A DNA stretch of 28,061 nucleotides from positions 1-28,061 of the forward strand of contig JAULVA010000247.1 in the NCBI GenBank assembly GCA_032111275.1, in the 5' to 3' direction. This document shows, in pieces, positions 4,775 to 10,742 of the stretch (its first letter is position 1; each line of letters opens with the position of its first letter). The notes under the pieces are model-generated. The model did not search any database and had not been told where the DNA came from. It saw only the letters and a list, made by a program, of their open reading frames with translations. A program made the translations under genes and the position numbers. The stretch is from Bdellovibrionota bacterium (GTDB lineage Bacteria; Bdellovibrionota_C; UBA2361; OMII01).

Positions 4775-5791
4775 TTACGCGACCTTTTTGCTCTCGCCGA
4801 AGGTTTTCCTCATCGCCTCAGCGATGGAACACGAGGGAGCGTATCCAAGGTCCTGTCTGGCGCGAGAGATGTTGAAGTAATGGTGGGTGGACATCTCCGA
4901 AACTAAGAATCGGGTCAGAAGCGGTTTAATGTGAAGCCCCACCAACGAAAGAGCCTTTGCGACAACCTCCATCACCGCGCCGATCACGCTCGCGAGACCC
5001 TTCGATATCGCCTTTTGTACGGGCGGAAGGTGATGAGCGGCCAAGACCTCGTCGATCCAGCCCCACATCTTAACGGGATCCCCCTGACTGATGAAGTACG
5101 CATTCCCACCAACGACCTCTGGTGAGTTCTCCAGAGCTTTCATCGCCAAGATATGCGCGTTAACACAGTCATCGATGAAGGTCAGATCAACAAGATTTTC
5201 GCCAGCTCCGATACGAGTCAGCCGTCCCACCCTTGCCCGCTCAACGATGGTGGGGATGAGATTAGTATCATTCGACCCCCAAATGAGATGCGGTCGGAGC
5301 GCTACTGTCCGCAGCGTGCCATTTCGATCAGATGAAAGAACCTCTTGTTCCGCTTGTGCCTTCGTCTGAGGATAAAAAGCGTGGTAGTGCTCCGGATACG
5401 GAATCGACTCATCCACGTTGACAAGATCTGAACCTGTGTGAATAACGCTCGGAGAGCTTGTGAATACCAGGTTCTTGACGCCAGCTCGCTGGCAGGCGGA
5501 GAGGATATTTCGCGTCCCGAGCACATTTGTCTCATAGAACCCCTGATAATCGCCCCACATGTCGACCTTTGCGGCCGTATGAAAAACCCCGTCGATTCCC
5601 GCAAACAATTCGACCCAACTATCGAGGTTGGAACCGATATCAACCTGTCTGGTATGAACTCCAGCCGCCTCAAGGTCCGGATACTTCCCGCGTGACAAAC
5701 TGAGAACGGAATGACCTTGCCGCCTCAGCTCCTTACAGAGAGCCTTACCAACAAATCCACCACCGCCTGTGACGAGGTATCGCTTTGACAT
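4775..5791 (-). CDS. oleD: 2-alkyl-3-oxoalkanoate reductase (extended SDR, 3-beta-HSD-like)
   Basis: TGGGGFVG, HTAAKVDMWG, FTSSPSV, YPQTK (YxxxK), RPHLIWG; last gene of the oleA-oleBC block. Confidence 0.88.
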   Translation of the reverse strand: MSKRYLVTGGGGFVGKALCKELRRQGHSVLSLSRGKYPDLEAAGVHTRQVDIGSNLDSWVELFAGIDGVFHTAAKVDMWGDYQGFYETNVLGTRNILSACQRAGVKNLVFTSSPSVIHTGSDLVNVDESIPYPEHYHAFYPQTKAQAEQEVLSSDRNGTLRTVALRPHLIWGSNDTNLIPTIVERARVGRLTRIGAGENLVDLTFIDDCVNAHILAMKALENSPEVVGGNAYFISQGDPVKMWGWIDEVLAAHHLPPVQKAISKGLASVIGAVMEVVAKALSLVGLHIKPLLTRFLVSEMSTHHYFNISRARQDLGYAPSCSIAEAMRKTFGESKKVA

Positions 5792-5797
5792 ATACAG

Positions 5798-8410
5798 TTA
5801 CGCCGCTCGTTGCGCCTGAAGAACCTTATCCGCCCAATCTCCCAAACGATCCCGGAATATCTTTGCGTTATGCCGCGGATCCACGGGGAACGATTTGTGA
5901 AAGAAGAAATGCGTAATGCCCTGTGTGAGTGGTGAAGCGGCAGCGCACGCTCGGAGCTCTTGAAGGAAGGTCTCCCTTTCCTTCTCATCCTCAGGCCAAA
6001 ATTGCGGGAACGGCTCAACGACGATAGCGGGCTCGCGATAGCCCTTAATACCGACGAGCGCGGAGCGACGCACCTTTGGCATAGCGTTGAAGAGCTCCTC
6101 CAAGGGAACGCTGTGATACGTTCCATGATCGGTATAAATGGAGTGGGCCTTACGACCGCAGTAGTAGAGGTATCCCTCACCGTCGAGGTACCCTACATCA
6201 CCCATGCGGTGCCAGAAGTTCTCGCCGTCAAGGATCTTTCCCGCCTTGTTGGCGTCAGGGCGGTGAAGATACTCCGGACTAACACCCTGGCCTTGAACGA
6301 TAACTTCGCCAATGTCACCCGCGGTAAGTAACTCGCACTCCTCAATAGAACGGATAGGATCGTTCGTAGGTCGGATAACTCGGACAGAAACTCCGCGAAC
6401 CGGTCGACCAACCGGAGTGCCCTTCTCTCCTGAGACAGCAGCGACCCACGGATGGGTTGAAAGCTCTGTAGCCGTGATATAGGTGACGGGAAGAGCCTCC
6501 GTCGCTCCGTACGGAGTCGACGCTTCACCGTTCGGGATAGAGCGTTTTACGAGCGCAAGGGTTGAGGCTGGCACGGAAGCGCCCGCCATAAACACCCGCT
6601 TAATCGAAGGCAACGTCGTCCCCACACGCAGCGTGTATTCGGCTATCTTGTGCCACAACGTGGGAGATCCGAACGAGGACTCGATACCGAGATCGCTCAC
6701 AAGCTTCACTACCTGAGCTGGGTCAAGCGCGAGCGGTTTACCCGCCGGCATAGTCGGGAACACGCTTGCGACTCCGAGACCGATATTGAAGAGCGAGAAG
6801 ACCGGCAGTAACGTAAGATCTCGCACGCCCCCCTCCTGACCGAGGACGTCGCGAATCACCCGAAGCTGCTCAGCGAGCATGGCGTTCGTGTAGATGACAC
6901 CCTTCGGGGTTCCGGTAGCGCCTGACGTGAAAGCGATAAGCGCGCAATCCTCGGCTTTAAGACGATCATCCTTTCGTAGGATCGGGAGGGGAACCGGACT
7001 CACTGGGGCGTTAGCGAAACGCTTGAAGTAGCCCAAGGAGTGTCCCCGCGTAAACGCCCACTCAGAGGCCGTAACGTGGAACTTGATGCGGTGGAAGAGC
7101 GACCGCTTTAAGAGCCGCAAGAGGTGCGCTCGAGGCGATCCGATAAAGGCGTCAGGGTTCGCGTCCTGGATACACCGGGAGAGTCGCTCAAGCCCCATTC
7201 CCGGATCGAGGAACACCGGCGTTGCCCCTCGTCCCATGACCGCTACGCTGAGAGCGAGAAAATCCGTTCCAGGCGAGACGAGCATAAGCACCCGATCACC
7301 AGGAACGAGACCGAGATCTCCAAGTCCTCGTTGGTACTGATTGATGAGCTTCGCGAGATCACCGTACGTCGTATGCGCATAGTGAAGCGCGCTCCCATTG
7401 ATCGGATCTCGCACCCATCGGGGAGTAATCACCGCCGAAAGATTAGGCGCGGCCTCCGCGATTCGCATCACCTGATCGTAGATCACATGAACGCTCCCCT
7501 GCTCCCTTCCTTCGACGTTCGCTACAGGCTCAGTCTTGGCGGCCTCTCCCGATGGACGAGAGAGGAATTCCTTGATCGCGGGGATGGCGACCTTTGGAGC
7601 GTCATCCAGCACAAGGTGTGAGGCATCCGGAATTTCAAGCAACTCCGCCTTGGGGAAATGAGCCGCGACCTTGCTTAACATCTCGCGGTGGAAACAGGGG
7701 TCCTGAAGTCCCCACACGATCTTGACCGGCTTTTCCGCGACCTTTGGAAGGCCAGCGGCGATGTCGACCATCTGCTGGTAGGTCGGATGCGAGGCGTCAA
7801 ACGGAATGTCCTCAACGAAATCCCAGATCGCGTCTCGACGCTGTCGAGTCGTGTATGGGGCGCGGTAGCCGTCTTTGACCTCGGGGGTAAGCTTGGTGTG
7901 CGCGCCCATGCCCGTGGCCGTCGTCAACCGAACGAAGGTGTCCGTATGGCGGGTGAATAATTTACCGACAACCGGTGTCGCGGCGAGCTTAATGAAACCG
8001 GGAAGCGCTTCGGTCTCGGTCAGCGTTGTATTGAGGTAGACGATTCTATCGACCTTATCTAGCCGCCTGAGCATAAACCCAGTGCCGAGAGGTCCACCCC
8101 AATCATGCATCACGACTGAGAACCGATCGATGCCAAGGGTGTCAACGAACTCCTCAAGTTGATTGATGCGGTCTATCGCCTTGAATTTCTTCCCCGGCGT
8201 TCGGTCTGACAATCCGCACCCAAGAAAATCGGGAGCGATAACTCGGAAGGAGTCGCGAAGCTCGCGAATGAGGTTACGATAGAAGTAACACCACGTAGGG
8301 TTGCCGTGGAAACAGAGAACGACCGGGCCGCCGCCCTCATCAACGTAGTGCATCTTGTGCCCAGCTACGGTCACAAAACGCGATTGAAATGGCAGCACCT
8401 GAACTGACAC
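5798..8410 (-). CDS. oleBC: Fused OleB (beta-lactone decarboxylase, haloalkane-dehalogenase fold) and OleC (beta-lactone synthetase, AMP-forming)
   Basis: N-terminal ~285 aa: HGNPTW, HDWGG nucleophile elbow, WGLQDPCF, ASHLVLDDAP. C-terminal: FTSGATGTPKG, PYGATE, HRMGDVG, PVDPRHNAKI. GTG start with GAGGAG SD. Confidence 0.9.
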   Translation of the reverse strand: MSVQVLPFQSRFVTVAGHKMHYVDEGGGPVVLCFHGNPTWCYFYRNLIRELRDSFRVIAPDFLGCGLSDRTPGKKFKAIDRINQLEEFVDTLGIDRFSVVMHDWGGPLGTGFMLRRLDKVDRIVYLNTTLTETEALPGFIKLAATPVVGKLFTRHTDTFVRLTTATGMGAHTKLTPEVKDGYRAPYTTRQRRDAIWDFVEDIPFDASHPTYQQMVDIAAGLPKVAEKPVKIVWGLQDPCFHREMLSKVAAHFPKAELLEIPDASHLVLDDAPKVAIPAIKEFLSRPSGEAAKTEPVANVEGREQGSVHVIYDQVMRIAEAAPNLSAVITPRWVRDPINGSALHYAHTTYGDLAKLINQYQRGLGDLGLVPGDRVLMLVSPGTDFLALSVAVMGRGATPVFLDPGMGLERLSRCIQDANPDAFIGSPRAHLLRLLKRSLFHRIKFHVTASEWAFTRGHSLGYFKRFANAPVSPVPLPILRKDDRLKAEDCALIAFTSGATGTPKGVIYTNAMLAEQLRVIRDVLGQEGGVRDLTLLPVFSLFNIGLGVASVFPTMPAGKPLALDPAQVVKLVSDLGIESSFGSPTLWHKIAEYTLRVGTTLPSIKRVFMAGASVPASTLALVKRSIPNGEASTPYGATEALPVTYITATELSTHPWVAAVSGEKGTPVGRPVRGVSVRVIRPTNDPIRSIEECELLTAGDIGEVIVQGQGVSPEYLHRPDANKAGKILDGENFWHRMGDVGYLDGEGYLYYCGRKAHSIYTDHGTYHSVPLEELFNAMPKVRRSALVGIKGYREPAIVVEPFPQFWPEDEKERETFLQELRACAAASPLTQGITHFFFHKSFPVDPRHNAKIFRDRLGDWADKVLQAQRAA

Positions 8411-8414
8411 CAGC

Positions 8415-8443
8415 TACTCCTCGTAAGAACGTACTCCTCGTAC
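8415..8443 (-). promoter_or_regulatory. Tandem GAGGA-loop mini-hairpins, CsrA/RsmA-site-like; second overlaps the oleBC SD
   Basis: mRNA reads GUAC-GAGGA-GUAC (8443-8431) then UAC-GAGGA-GUA (8425-8415); an 11-nt exact repeat with 17-nt period. Confidence 0.5.
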
Positions 8444-8505
8444 AAACACTTGGTACAAGCGATTATACGCCAGCCTGCGCGGCTCGATGTACCGCGCGGC
8501 TCGAT

Positions 8506-9567
8506 TTACCACTGTATACCGAGGAAGAGAGAATTGAGTCCTGAGCCGAATCCGGTCATCATGATCTTGTCTCCCTTCTTAATCCCCTTCTGCTCAATTC
8601 CGATAGCCGTCGCCGTCGGGCATGCCGCTGACACGAGATTTCCACGATTCTGGTAGATGGTGAACTCCTTGGTGTGGTCGAGACCAAGGGTGTTGTAGAA
8701 GGCCTCGTTTACCTGTCGACCAACCTGATGGCAGAAGATGTGATCCACATCATCCCGAGTCCACTCAAGGGCCTCAGACGCGTCCTTCCATGTACGCTGA
8801 CCGAGAACGGCGGCCGCGGCGATGAGCTTCGAAGACTCCGTCTCCATGACCGGACCGAGCGGAGGTCCATCAACCAAATGATAATCGGTGTTGCCTACGC
8901 ACAGATCACAGTGCTCAGTAGCTGAGCGAGTCGCGCCACCAAGGATCTTGTGTCCTGTCTTTGAGATGCTCTCATGCGTGAGAACATACGCCACAGCGCC
9001 GGAACCGATTGTGAAAGTTGGAAGTAAGCGAAGGAGCTTATCGCGGGGGAGATCTTTCCCCTCAAGGATATTCCTGAAGGCGTTGTCGAGAATGACGCGA
9101 GTGTGTTCAGCGGAGACAACTACTCCCGCCTTAACGATACCTGACTCGATCAACTGGCCAAGAAAATAGAGACCATCCATGAAACCGAGGCACGCGTTAC
9201 TGATATCGAGCGCGATACCATCCTCTGGAAGAGCGAGATTTCGGTGGATAAGGCATCCTGTCGCTGGCTCGAAGAAGTCACGAGTAACGGAGCAGCTGAA
9301 GAGCGCTCGAATATCCTTGTCAGCGAGACCGGAATTATCGATCGCCTGACGCACAACCTGAGTACCGAGACCGCTCGGTCGCTCACTGGCATCCCACAAT
9401 CTACGGGAGCTGATTCCTGTGAGGCGCTCAAGGGTTCCAAAAGGGATACCGAGTTGTTGGTATACGCCGCTAAGCTTGTCTTCGATCTCGGCGGAGCTTA
9501 CCTCAGTCGGAGGGGTTGAGATTGCGTAAGACTCTAAACAAACGTGCTTGAAACGAAATGCGACCAT
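8506..9567 (-). CDS. oleA: OleA, acyl-CoA:acyl-CoA alkyltransferase (FabH/thiolase fold)
   Basis: LERLTGI, FFEPATG (OleA catalytic Glu position), SNACLGF (Cys), HQVG (His), GNLVSA (Asn), GFGSGLN; first gene of the cluster. Confidence 0.92.
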   Translation of the reverse strand: MVAFRFKHVCLESYAISTPPTEVSSAEIEDKLSGVYQQLGIPFGTLERLTGISSRRLWDASERPSGLGTQVVRQAIDNSGLADKDIRALFSCSVTRDFFEPATGCLIHRNLALPEDGIALDISNACLGFMDGLYFLGQLIESGIVKAGVVVSAEHTRVILDNAFRNILEGKDLPRDKLLRLLPTFTIGSGAVAYVLTHESISKTGHKILGGATRSATEHCDLCVGNTDYHLVDGPPLGPVMETESSKLIAAAAVLGQRTWKDASEALEWTRDDVDHIFCHQVGRQVNEAFYNTLGLDHTKEFTIYQNRGNLVSAACPTATAIGIEQKGIKKGDKIMMTGFGSGLNSLFLGIQW

Positions 9568-9603
9568 AAGCGAAATTTAATCCCCGCGGAACGACCGATA
9601 AAA

Positions 9604-9690
9604 GTGTTGCAGGAGTATCACATTCAGCGGCTAGGAACAAATAGTTGGACCGGCAATCCGGGAGGCGGAGGACGACCTGAAGGAGAGACG
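9604..9690 (+). ncRNA. Candidate GGA-rich small RNA (Csr/Rsm-sponge-like), divergent from oleA
   Basis: Seven GGA triplets in 9612-9684, several in predicted short hairpin loops; ACCGATAA (sigma28 -10-like) at 9594-9601. No expression evidence and no clear 3' end. Confidence 0.25.
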
Positions 9691-9858
9691 CCCCTCTACC
9701 CTCTGCGCAGAACTCAATCGAGTCAGAGAGCGAAGATATTCAGTGTGTTAGCTAATCCCTGGTAAAGTTTTCTGGCATTTCAACATCTTGCGTCCCTGCC
9801 GCGGCTAAGGCCATCGATGGTAAGGGCCAGAAAGCGTCGGAGGGAGACCGATAGGTAT

Positions 9859-9895
9859 AAAAAAAGCCCTCGACCCACATCAGTAGGTCGAGGGC
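9859..9895 (-). terminator. Rho-independent terminator of the mini-flagellin gene
   Basis: Perfect 10-bp stem GCCCTCGACC/GGTCGAGGGC (9866-9895) followed on the minus strand by T7 (9859-9865), 15 nt after the stop. Confidence 0.85.
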
Positions 9896-9910
9896 GTTGT
9901 CTCAGGTACG

Positions 9911-10360
9911 CTAGGACCTCAGGAGGCGTTCCACGGTCGTGAGGTTCAGCATCTCAGCTGGAGCCTCCCGAGCCGATAGGTCATTATCGACGATTCTCCG
10001 CTGCAACTCCTCCGCCAGCCGCGCGGCTGCGTCCACATCTCTCACCGAGGTAGCCGAGGCGCCGATATTGGCCTCTTGAACCTCTTTGGACACTTCAGCA
10101 AGAGAATTGAGCGCAAACGTCGATTTCGAATTGTCATCAACAGCATCTTGTAGTCTGGCAAGTCTGGGATTATCCGCGGAGCGCCCCTGAGGGGAGCTAT
10201 TGGTTACCTGGACCTGATTAAAGATACTGCCCCTCGATGACCCCATCGAGGACCGTTTGCCGGGTGAATCAGCGCTCGAACTCGCTGCCGTCATAGAGGA
10301 AAGCCTCTTGAACGCGGGCGAGCGGCGAGACGCGGAAGGGTCAAAGTCATAATTACCCAT
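9911..10360 (-). CDS. Flagellin-derived mini-protein (149 aa): C-terminal D0-like helix plus degenerate N-terminal motif
   Basis: ANIGASATSVRDVD...RRI...AxA...VERLLR is in register with the flagellin C-terminus (ENLxAAESRIRDVD...I...AQA...LLR); KRLSSMTAASSSADSP resembles ERLSSGxRINSAADD. Has an SD and its own terminator. Confidence 0.6.
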   Translation of the reverse strand: MGNYDFDPSASRRSPAFKRLSSMTAASSSADSPGKRSSMGSSRGSIFNQVQVTNSSPQGRSADNPRLARLQDAVDDNSKSTFALNSLAEVSKEVQEANIGASATSVRDVDAAARLAEELQRRIVDNDLSAREAPAEMLNLTTVERLLRS

Positions 10361-10406
10361 GATACAACCTCACTGTCACAGTGATCGGATGAGCAGAATT
10401 ACTCAC
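10353..10406 (-). CDS. Candidate 17-aa upstream ORF MSNSAHPITVTVRLYHG overlapping the mini-flagellin start
   Basis: AGGAGGTGA (10420-10412) 5 nt before GTG; its TAA lies within codons 2-3 of the 10360 ORF. Confidence 0.3.
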   Translation of the reverse strand: MSNSAHPITVTVRLYHG

Positions 10407-10518
10407 GCCTTTCACCTCCTACTGTAGATTAAATGAACTCTCGTGCACTGCGCGGCACAACGAACTACCTCCGAAGACCTCGGCACGGGAGCTTATTCAA
10501 CGCATGACTACATTCCTA

Positions 10519-10716
10519 CCTGCCTGGCAGGGTGGTGAAAAAAGATTTCCTCCTGCGCATCTTGATAGTTTGACTGCAACTTCGTTGGAGATATCGAAAA
10601 AATCCTAAACGTATCCCAGAGGATACGTCTCCGGTTTTTTCGCCATCTCCGCCTCGTTTCGTCTAAACTCTCAAAATGCTCGCGACGGACCCTGTTTTCA
10701 CCACCCTGCTAGGCAG
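10519..10716. mobile_element. ~198-bp imperfect palindrome, MITE-like (ERIC/Correia-type architecture)
   Basis: Terminal IR 10521-10541 vs 10695-10715 (20/21); inner IR 10587-10616 vs 10621-10650 (23/30) around a CAGA loop; intervening arms also align; TA on both flanks (10517-18, 10717-18); no ORF. Confidence 0.6.
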
Positions 10717-10742
10717 TATCGGCGCGATATCTGGTTACTGAA
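10716..10742 (-). promoter_or_regulatory. Sigma28 (FliA)-like promoter pointing towards the mini-flagellin gene
   Basis: TTCAGTAA-N11-GCCGATAC vs consensus TAAAGTTT-N11-GCCGATAA (-10 matches 7/8, -35 only 4/8). Confidence 0.45.

Follow-up and report, generated by a model that had tools for sequence, protein, structure and literature searches.

The 28,061-nucleotide (nt) contig JAULVA010000247.1 of a Bdellovibrionota bacterium (assembly GCA_032111275.1), analysed here over its whole length as the window, carries on its minus strand a gene for a 149-amino-acid (aa) protein, P0001, which we read as a regulatory, non-polymerising mini-flagellin that sequesters FliW (probability about 0.55). It probably represents a further, hitherto undescribed component of the switch that keeps flagellin synthesis in step with flagellum assembly. 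The regulatory reading was reached because the protein keeps the parts of flagellin that are handled in the cytoplasm and has lost the parts that make up the filament. It appears to be a flagellin-superfamily member in which the outer domains are gone altogether, along with the D0 helix of the N-terminus and the greater part of D1, and the parts left would be (i) F-K-R-L-S-S and I-F-N-Q-V as short N-terminal motifs, (ii) the last part of the C-terminal D1 helix with Asn98 (N98) and V-R-D-V-D-A, and (iii) a D0-like V-E-R-L-L-R end. In the known circuit, flagellin is both a building block and a signal that titrates FliW away from CsrA. If our reading is true, a non-structural derivative that keeps only the FliW-handling and chaperone-handling parts uncouples signalling from building and gives a circuit that many phyla share a buffer or sensor that can be tuned; the natural deletion also delimits a minimal set of segments by which flagellin is predicted to hold FliW.

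The 149-codon open reading frame (ORF) that a first-pass annotation, made from the sequence alone, had picked out was confirmed with its ATG start (Table 1). A word-indexed search retrieved 28 homologs at 49–89% identity, with neither a Pfam domain nor a name on any of them, and the complete ones are all 147–150 aa long; when cluster representatives were searched exhaustively with HMMER, the family widened to ∼31% identity, with complete members of 124–150 aa. No full-length flagellin appeared among the homologs in the single-sequence or the exhaustive HMMER searches. The family profile finds a full-length match in 31 of the 34 genomes of the same genus, and the homolog records with a named source are freshwater metagenome-assembled genomes (MAGs) of Bdellovibrionota or of a "delta proteobacterium". 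Pairwise ratios of nonsynonymous to synonymous substitution rates (dN/dS) against seven homologs were 0.16–0.33. Because its length is kept, its homologs include no full-length flagellin and its dN/dS lies in this range, the mini-flagellin is a real, conserved protein under purifying selection and not a pseudogene. A decaying flagellin remnant or a spurious ORF might be argued from the shortness of the protein, the lack of a Pfam match and a miniature inverted-repeat transposable element (MITE) in its leader. Such an origin is highly improbable given that length and motifs are kept across the genus and beyond at the dN/dS values above, that the ribosome-binding block and the promoter are also kept, and that an RNA contig matches the window allele with 1 mismatch; we regard gene decay as effectively excluded.

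AlphaFold2, supplied with the family alignment, modelled residues 1–64 as disordered and residues 65–148 as one continuous helix, with a predicted local distance difference test score (pLDDT) of >90 over most of the helix. The disordered half contains two strongly kept motifs, F17-x-R19-L20-x-S22 and I46-F47-N48-Q49-V50, of which F17, R19, L20, F47, Q49, and V50 are invariant in the homolog alignment A1. The conserved block of the helix starts at N98 and continues as A-S-x-x-S-V-x-[DE]-V-x-A-A-x-x-L-A-E. N98 itself (codon 10067–10069) is invariant over the whole family and is among only six invariant columns of a diverse alignment. Further on, the conserved positions of the segment 120–149 are I123, V124, A130, A133, A135, L138, V143, and R145–S149, and the terminal V-x-R-L-L-R-S is invariant among close homologs. 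The flagellin register that the first-pass annotation had described for the C-terminus is correct: N98 lies nine residues ahead of R107-D-V-D, I123 is at D110+13, A133 and A135 are at D110+23 and D110+25, and the chain ends in L-L-R-S. Its account of the N-terminal motif holds in part, in that F17-K-R-L-S-S22 is there, whereas the spacing it gave for the S.AD.P that follows is one residue off. This F-K-R-L-S-S, which recalls the RLSSG segment, is the sole N-terminal likeness to flagellin; P0001 has no match to Flagellin_N (PF00669), and the N-terminal D0/D1 helical arm is absent, residues 1–64 being predicted as disordered.

The relationship of the helix to flagellin emerged from three lines of comparison. 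First, in an unfiltered search of the complete six-frame ORF set of the genome (22,116 ORFs), the two best non-self matches of a hidden Markov model (HMM) of the helix were flagellins (E 0.0043 and 0.028), a resemblance that exceeds chance; the alignment places N98 on the Asn of flagellin E-N-x-x-A-A-E-S-x-[VI]-R-D-x-D and runs on to the A-Q-A-N region. Second, when 124 genomes of the phylum were searched with the family profile, it also matched 265–275-aa "long forms" of sister families. The mini-flagellin family aligns with five of these long forms in hhalign over residues 61–142 (Prob 96.6%, E 5.8e-10), and the long forms are in turn colinear with the true flagellins of the genome over nearly their full length (Prob 93.8%, E 1.8e-7), two of them exceeding the Pfam Flagellin_N cut-off. 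Third, the top matches in a protein-language-model feature search were short Flagellin_C clusters (scores 0.93 and 0.91), and the feature set is shared by 35 of 100 matches. Because all three comparisons are positive, the helix of the mini-flagellin is, as judged from sequence, homologous to flagellin D1-C/D0-C; the similarity that the first-pass annotation had proposed is therefore significant, yet only by way of an intermediate family, with the language-model search concurring. The whole protein falls outside the defining tests of a flagellin, having neither a threshold Pfam match nor an N-terminal helical arm. Flagellin_C (PF00700) has no match among 18 family members, the distant short relative L053 scoring 18.9 bits where the cut-off is 23; among PDB sequences, a profile search matched a flagellin only at E 6.4; and Foldseek with the AlphaFold2 model returned nothing useful from the PDB, since the model is a single helix.

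The long forms (L046–L050, from genomes G068, G067, G049, G061, and G114) are divergent flagellin-like proteins of 261–275 aa that start with M-D-V-K-D-V and are without the canonical N-terminal D0 sequence. By their sequences, they bridge mini-flagellins to true flagellins and may be the ancestors of mini-flagellins. An AlphaFold2 model of one 265-aa long form was poor (pLDDT 48.7) and was left unused. Other families of the phylum (L051–L061) have short forms of 101–181 aa with N..A..S.V-R-D/N-V-E, A-Q-A-N-Q, and an L-L ending, and in some of these short forms the flagellin-like ending is even clearer (L-x-A-Q-A-N-Q ... L-L). The short-form gene lies ∼190 nt downstream of a flagellin/FlgL-like gene in L051 and L060, and adjoins the gene of a J-domain membrane protein in L052, L054, L055, and L059.

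The genome is a MAG that is 77% complete. It encodes six Flagellin_C-bearing proteins, FliW (109.8 bits) with a csrA gene directly upstream, a second csrA elsewhere, and both fliS and fliA, so that the flagellar and regulatory genes whose presence the first-pass annotation had left to be confirmed are at hand. The CsrA encoded upstream of FliW (L008:959–1417 (+), contig C335) is, at 152 aa, about twice the usual CsrA length and has a long C-terminal extension with two CxxC pairs (C-E-R-C ... C-S-S-C).

FliW binding needs a conserved Asn in several flagellins, namely N255 of Bacillus subtilis Hag, N237 of Treponema pallidum FlaB, and N287 of Borrelia burgdorferi FlaB, where an N287A mutation abolishes binding (PMC12327847). 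Both the hhalign and the helix HMM alignments put N98 opposite N239 of a flagellin encoded in the same genome; with the sequences anchored at their ends, and assuming that the last 48 residues are gapless, N239 falls at position 255 in the 304-aa chains 5wjt and 6gow. Further, hydrogen–deuterium exchange (HDX) in B. subtilis found that FliW protects flagellin residues 11–34, 50–72, and 240–260, and the first 72 residues of that flagellin are enough for FliW binding (PMC6070490).

We predicted the complex of the genome's FliW with the full-length mini-flagellin, supplying the family alignment. The confidence score was 0.85 in 3 of 3 runs, whereas three controls (two with the partner replaced and one with FliW replaced) all gave 0.00–0.01. 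Among solved complexes, 58 of 80 attain the score mark for such predictions, as do 2 of 110 mismatched pairs, counts that are rough here since our own alignment was used. At least 74% of contacts agreed among the runs, with a partner pLDDT of 60–62. The predicted interface on the mini-flagellin comprises residues 16–23, 45–53, and 87–119, and in the model N98 touches FliW residues 36–39, 67, 103, and 116. Three conserved motifs, two of them within the disordered region, are thus the modelled FliW contacts, and by analogy the interface parallels the three HDX footprints of FliW on real flagellin, with the motif at residues 16–23 corresponding to the RLSSG segment, which falls within the 11–34 footprint (PMC6070490). 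No solved FliW–flagellin complex was found among the matches listed, the FliW entries 2aj7, 5dmb, 5dmd, 5jak, and 9p4g being absent from the 60 flagellin entries. FliW binding by the mini-flagellin is computationally supported, and binding through the conserved Asn, as the first-pass annotation had it, accords with the model (0.85 against 0.01 for the best of the three controls). That annotation had also named what would speak against its interpretation of a FliW-directed mini-flagellin, namely a lack of flagellin similarity, absence of the genes concerned, or full-length homologs; in each respect the opposite was found, and at the computational level the interpretation is supported.

A flagellin-derived protein could also act independently of FliW, as a coiled-coil regulator or adaptor, by sequestering FliS only, as an anti-sigma-like factor, or outside the flagellar system, with the FliW model a false positive produced by ancestral features. 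A long single helix could pair with many partners, the gene is unlinked to flagellar genes in most lineages, and the complex test can also let through proteins that are closely related to true partners. We nevertheless consider a FliW-independent role unlikely, as the partner-replaced (both) and FliW-replaced controls scored near zero and the FliW-critical Asn is the one invariant polar residue across the family. The anti-sigma factor FlgM deserves mention in this context. Like FlgM, the mini-flagellin is small, disordered in its N-terminal half and helical in its C-terminal half, and encoded by a putatively late flagellar gene, FlgM being exported by the flagellar apparatus; unlike FlgM, it has the sequence signature of a flagellin. 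Identity with FlgM was rejected, there being no match to FlgM (PF04316) in P0001 and a canonical flgM beside flgN elsewhere, on contig C241. In all, three ORFs of the genome exceed the FlgM Pfam cut-off (contigs C241, C21, and C186; L020–L022), one canonical and two stand-alone, the canonical gene adjoining FlgN, FlgJ-like, and FlgI genes.

A promoter-like element upstream of the gene (T-T/A-C-A-G-C/T-A-A, 11 nt, G-C-C-G-A-T-A-G/C in aligned homologous loci) is kept upstream of most genus homologs amid otherwise diverged DNA, its −10 part varying as G/A/T-C-C-G-A-T-A. This −10 part is a hallmark of sigma28, and we infer control by FliA; because the −35 part differs and a loose genome-wide scan gave no flagellar genes, we grade the promoter as sigma28-like and not as proven. 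Sigma factor use seems to differ among the flagellin genes of the genome. In L001, the first flagellin (ATG 898) has a sigma54-like box (T-G-G-C-A-A, 5 nt, T-T-G-C-T) ∼130 nt upstream, the flagellin of contig C306 probably has a sigma54-like box too (L004:2600–2640 (−) among the sites inspected), and the flagellin of L002 (ATG 913) has a sigma28-like box (T-A-A-G-G-T-T-T, 11 nt, G-C-C-G-T-A-A-G) ∼270 nt upstream.

Downstream, the gene has its own strong intrinsic terminator, as had been claimed, with a 13-bp GC-rich stem followed by seven T after the stop codon. A sub-threshold Rfam match to NsiR1 on the terminator hairpin was taken as chance. In a freshwater metatranscriptome, a 763-nt contig with 1 mismatch to the window allele covers 9899–10661, and two estuary metatranscriptomes of another study contain contigs of a close relative that cover 9898–10508 and 9892–10405. 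The flanks (9560–9888 and beyond 10688) are without cover in these three RNA contigs, which is an absence of cover only and does not make the flanks silent. A DNA contig of the estuary study, unlike the RNA contigs, spans the whole stretch; it continues past the terminator, where the RNA contigs of the two studies end at 9892–9899, a weak hint of termination. Although contigs cannot fix transcript ends and RNA libraries may contain DNA, these observations fit a monocistronic transcript that extends from just past the promoter-like element to the terminator. The same RNA libraries contain the conserved 5′ end of a second homolog type at higher depth.

The leader holds three conserved blocks. 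The ribosome-binding block is identical or nearly so in 21 of 21 distinct genus leaders, even at ∼31% protein identity; it has G-A-G-G and not GGA, whereas the two blocks upstream of it do bear GGA. Related leaders keep an A-G-G-A-C/G-G-T-G block 60–70 nt upstream of the ATG, and homologous loci read G-C-A-G-G-T-A-G-G-A-A-T-G-T-G-G directly after the −10 box, with A-T-A-C-A-A-G-G-A-T-G-T in L029. Going by their letters alone, the GGA blocks fit CsrA sites, and no hairpin-loop context emerged for them. A pairing of the 5′ leader block with the ribosome-binding block, suggested by RNAalifold, was rejected because the duplex energies in 20 leaders were no better than those of shuffled controls (z −0.5 to +0.9).

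Between the −10 box and the leader lies the MITE-like nested palindrome, with arms at 10520–10571 and 10665–10716. It is inserted 8–9 nt downstream of the −10 box and not inside it, and because of these 185 nt the promoter stands ∼360 nt from the ATG. The element is lineage-specific and occurs in none of the homologous loci. In a relative's DNA contig, 10523 runs directly into 10709, as at an empty site, and the RNA contig that ends at 10508 comes from a MITE-less relative. At least 4 other copies occur in the genome at 85–92% identity. A terminator-like hairpin within the MITE (10630–10607, minus strand) is in sense orientation, and the RNA contig of the window allele still reaches into the MITE, to 10661.

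For the proposed mechanism, we infer control by sigma28 and CsrA, binding of FliS, and export, together with the regulatory outcome described below. The gene would be transcribed singly, from the sigma28-like promoter to its own terminator. The product would not build a filament, no polymerisation being expected because the N-terminal D0 helix and most of D1 are absent, and would bind FliW with its N98 helix and both N-terminal motifs. With FliW held by the mini-flagellin, CsrA would be free to repress the translation of flagellin mRNA, possibly also that of the mini-flagellin mRNA itself. The D0-like tail probably lets FliS bring the protein to the export gate, and secretion would then free FliW, as real flagellin does in B. 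subtilis. The FliS step draws on published work: in Hag, D0-C is the segment that wraps around FliS, and Hag V299D, L300E, and R304E substitutions nearly abolish filament formation, which their authors read as a secretion defect (PMC6070490). By analogy, binding of FliS and delivery to the export gate through residues 120–149 are suggested because this segment, which lies outside the predicted FliW interface, has its hydrophobic residues in the same register as flagellin D0-C and retains V-x-x-L-L-R at its end. The protein also keeps an N-terminal segment whose counterpart in Salmonella FliC overlaps the export signal. Because the C-terminal tail is conserved, we lean slightly toward an exported flux sensor over a cytoplasmic decoy. 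In its fullest form, which we put forward tentatively as a possibility, the protein would be a "sentinel" flagellin, a dedicated fourth component of the FliW–CsrA switch that loads FliW and FliS, leaves the cell once the apparatus is able to export it, and thereby signals the secretion flux to CsrA while taking no part in the filament.

Export could also be the whole purpose of the protein, which would then be a substrate with an extracytoplasmic job (as a minor axial, junction, or cap- or sheath-associated protein, or as a secreted peptide) that FliW and FliS merely handle, with no regulation. The kept V-x-R-L-L-R end, whose Hag equivalents are needed for filament formation and, according to the authors, for secretion (PMC6070490), would suit such a substrate, as would the disordered N-terminal half, which is typical of flagellar type III substrates, the putative late-type promoter, and the high depth of the homologs' RNA contigs. 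We find this quite unlikely, since the N-terminal D0 helix that an axial coiled coil calls for is absent, the most conserved residues of the disordered half fall within the predicted FliW interface and form no separate module, and secretion itself is conjectural.

Several points weigh against reading the mini-flagellin as a FliW-sequestering regulator. With regard to its ancestry, the Pfam search with Flagellin_N and Flagellin_C that the first-pass annotation had proposed came back empty, as P0001 matches no Pfam family even at E ≤ 10, the FlgM domain included; a scan of NCBIfam gave no direct match either, a direct hhalign of the close-homolog alignment against three own-genome flagellins found the expected register but with P 0.31, and the D0-like tail is more polar than flagellin D0. 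With regard to FliW, co-occurrence with the mini-flagellin is uninformative because FliW is nearly universal (108 of the 124 phylum genomes sampled), the complex score is the model's own confidence and not a measurement, and the match between interface and conservation is not independent evidence because the predictor had received the family alignment. With regard to expression, the −35 T-T-C-A-G is atypical, the T-A-A-G-G-T-T-T of one own-genome flagellin differing from it; the loose sigma28-like scan yielded 20 downstream ORFs that were checked in Pfam, none of them flagellar; and a MITE with a terminator-like hairpin separates the promoter from the gene. Finally, synteny with the glutamate dehydrogenase gene and the ole-like cluster is confined to close relatives and lends no functional support.

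The nearest known system is the Hag–FliW–CsrA switch of B. subtilis, which also occurs in Campylobacter, Borrelia, Treponema, and Clostridioides. Like Hag, the mini-flagellin has a homologous C-terminal D1/D0 helix with the Asn on which FliW depends and an R-D-x-D-x-A block, together with an RLSS-type N-terminal segment, and the setting is alike in that fliW, csrA, and fliS are in the genome, GGA motifs in the leader, and a putative late-type promoter ahead of it. Unlike Hag, it has 149 aa instead of ∼270–500, has no N-terminal D0 helix and little of D1, falls below the Pfam flagellin thresholds, and is encoded by a separate gene beside at least four ordinary flagellins. Caulobacter crescentus has one regulatory flagellin paralog (FljJ) and five structural ones (PMC7591256). 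FljJ is the nearest concept, as a flagellin-family protein that mainly regulates flagellin synthesis and does not build the filament. It is a full-length flagellin that works with FlbT and FlaF, whereas the mini-flagellin is drastically truncated and its predicted partner is FliW. FlbT (PF07378) had no match in the genome at E ≤ 0.1, which at 77% completeness leaves its absence unproven, and FlaG had no match in the genome. YvzB of B. subtilis has been described as "a smaller homolog of Hag" that is not required for flagellar assembly (PMC4793158, PMC8929632). By description only, the mini-flagellin resembles YvzB in that both are short flagellin homologs whose organisms have FliW and CsrA; the lineages are unrelated, and YvzB is without a reported function in PMC4793158 and PMC8929632. 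Short Flagellin_C-only clusters occur in Bacillota too, according to the ESM Atlas. Our literature searches returned no paper describing a FliW-binding mini-flagellin.

Table 1. Positions of the mini-flagellin gene, its protein segments, and the flanking elements in the window
Feature	Position	Strand	Basis
Mini-flagellin coding sequence (P0001), 149 aa	9911–10360, including stop codon	minus	ORF and translation, homologs, dN/dS, RNA contigs
Single long helix, residues 65–148, homologous by sequence to the flagellin C-terminal D1/D0 helix	9917–10168	minus	AlphaFold2, HMM matches to own flagellins, hhalign via long forms
Residues 16–23 (A-F-K-R-L-S-S-M), RLSS-type N-terminal motif, predicted FliW contact 1	10292–10315	minus	conservation and complex model
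Residues 45–53 (S-I-F-N-Q-V-Q-V-T), second motif of the disordered half, predicted FliW contact 2	10202–10228	minus	conservation and complex model
Residues 87–119, helix segment predicted on FliW, with Asn98 and V-R-D-V-D-A-A block	10004–10102	minus	predicted interface, lowest-error pairs
Residues 120–149, D0-like C-terminal segment ending V-E-R-L-L-R-S, candidate FliS/FlhA docking	9914–10003	minus	conservation
Intrinsic terminator	9856–9895	minus	13-bp stem (9895–9866), 9 GC pairs, then T7
Ribosome-binding block G-A-C-A-G-T-G-A-G-G-T-T-G-T-A-T-C	10361–10377	minus	conservation among leaders
Mid-leader GGA block C-A-G-T-A-G-G-A-G-G-T-G-A-A, candidate CsrA site	10411–10424	minus	conservation
Leader 5′-end block G-C-A-G-G-T-A-G-G-A-A-T-G-T-A-G, candidate CsrA site, approximate mRNA 5′ end	10508–10523	minus	conservation, RNA contig of a MITE-less relative ending at 10508
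185-nt MITE-like nested palindrome	10524–10708		inverted repeats, empty-site allele, other genome copies
Sigma28-like promoter T-T-C-A-G-T-A-A, 11 nt, G-C-C-G-A-T-A-C	10716–10742	minus	conservation upstream of homologs

As the first-pass annotation had noted, the gene stands away from flagellar genes. Downstream of it lie a FabH/OleA-like gene, an AMP-binding/hydrolase fusion, and an epimerase (4775–9567, minus strand); the upstream side has transporter fragments and, at a greater distance, a large glutamate dehydrogenase. Between the terminator and the oleA-like gene, a GGA-dense segment (9594–9690, plus strand) had no Rfam match at E ≤ 1. The locus L012 has an extra 85-aa ORF, of a kind that the window lacks, between the mini-flagellin and the ole-like genes.

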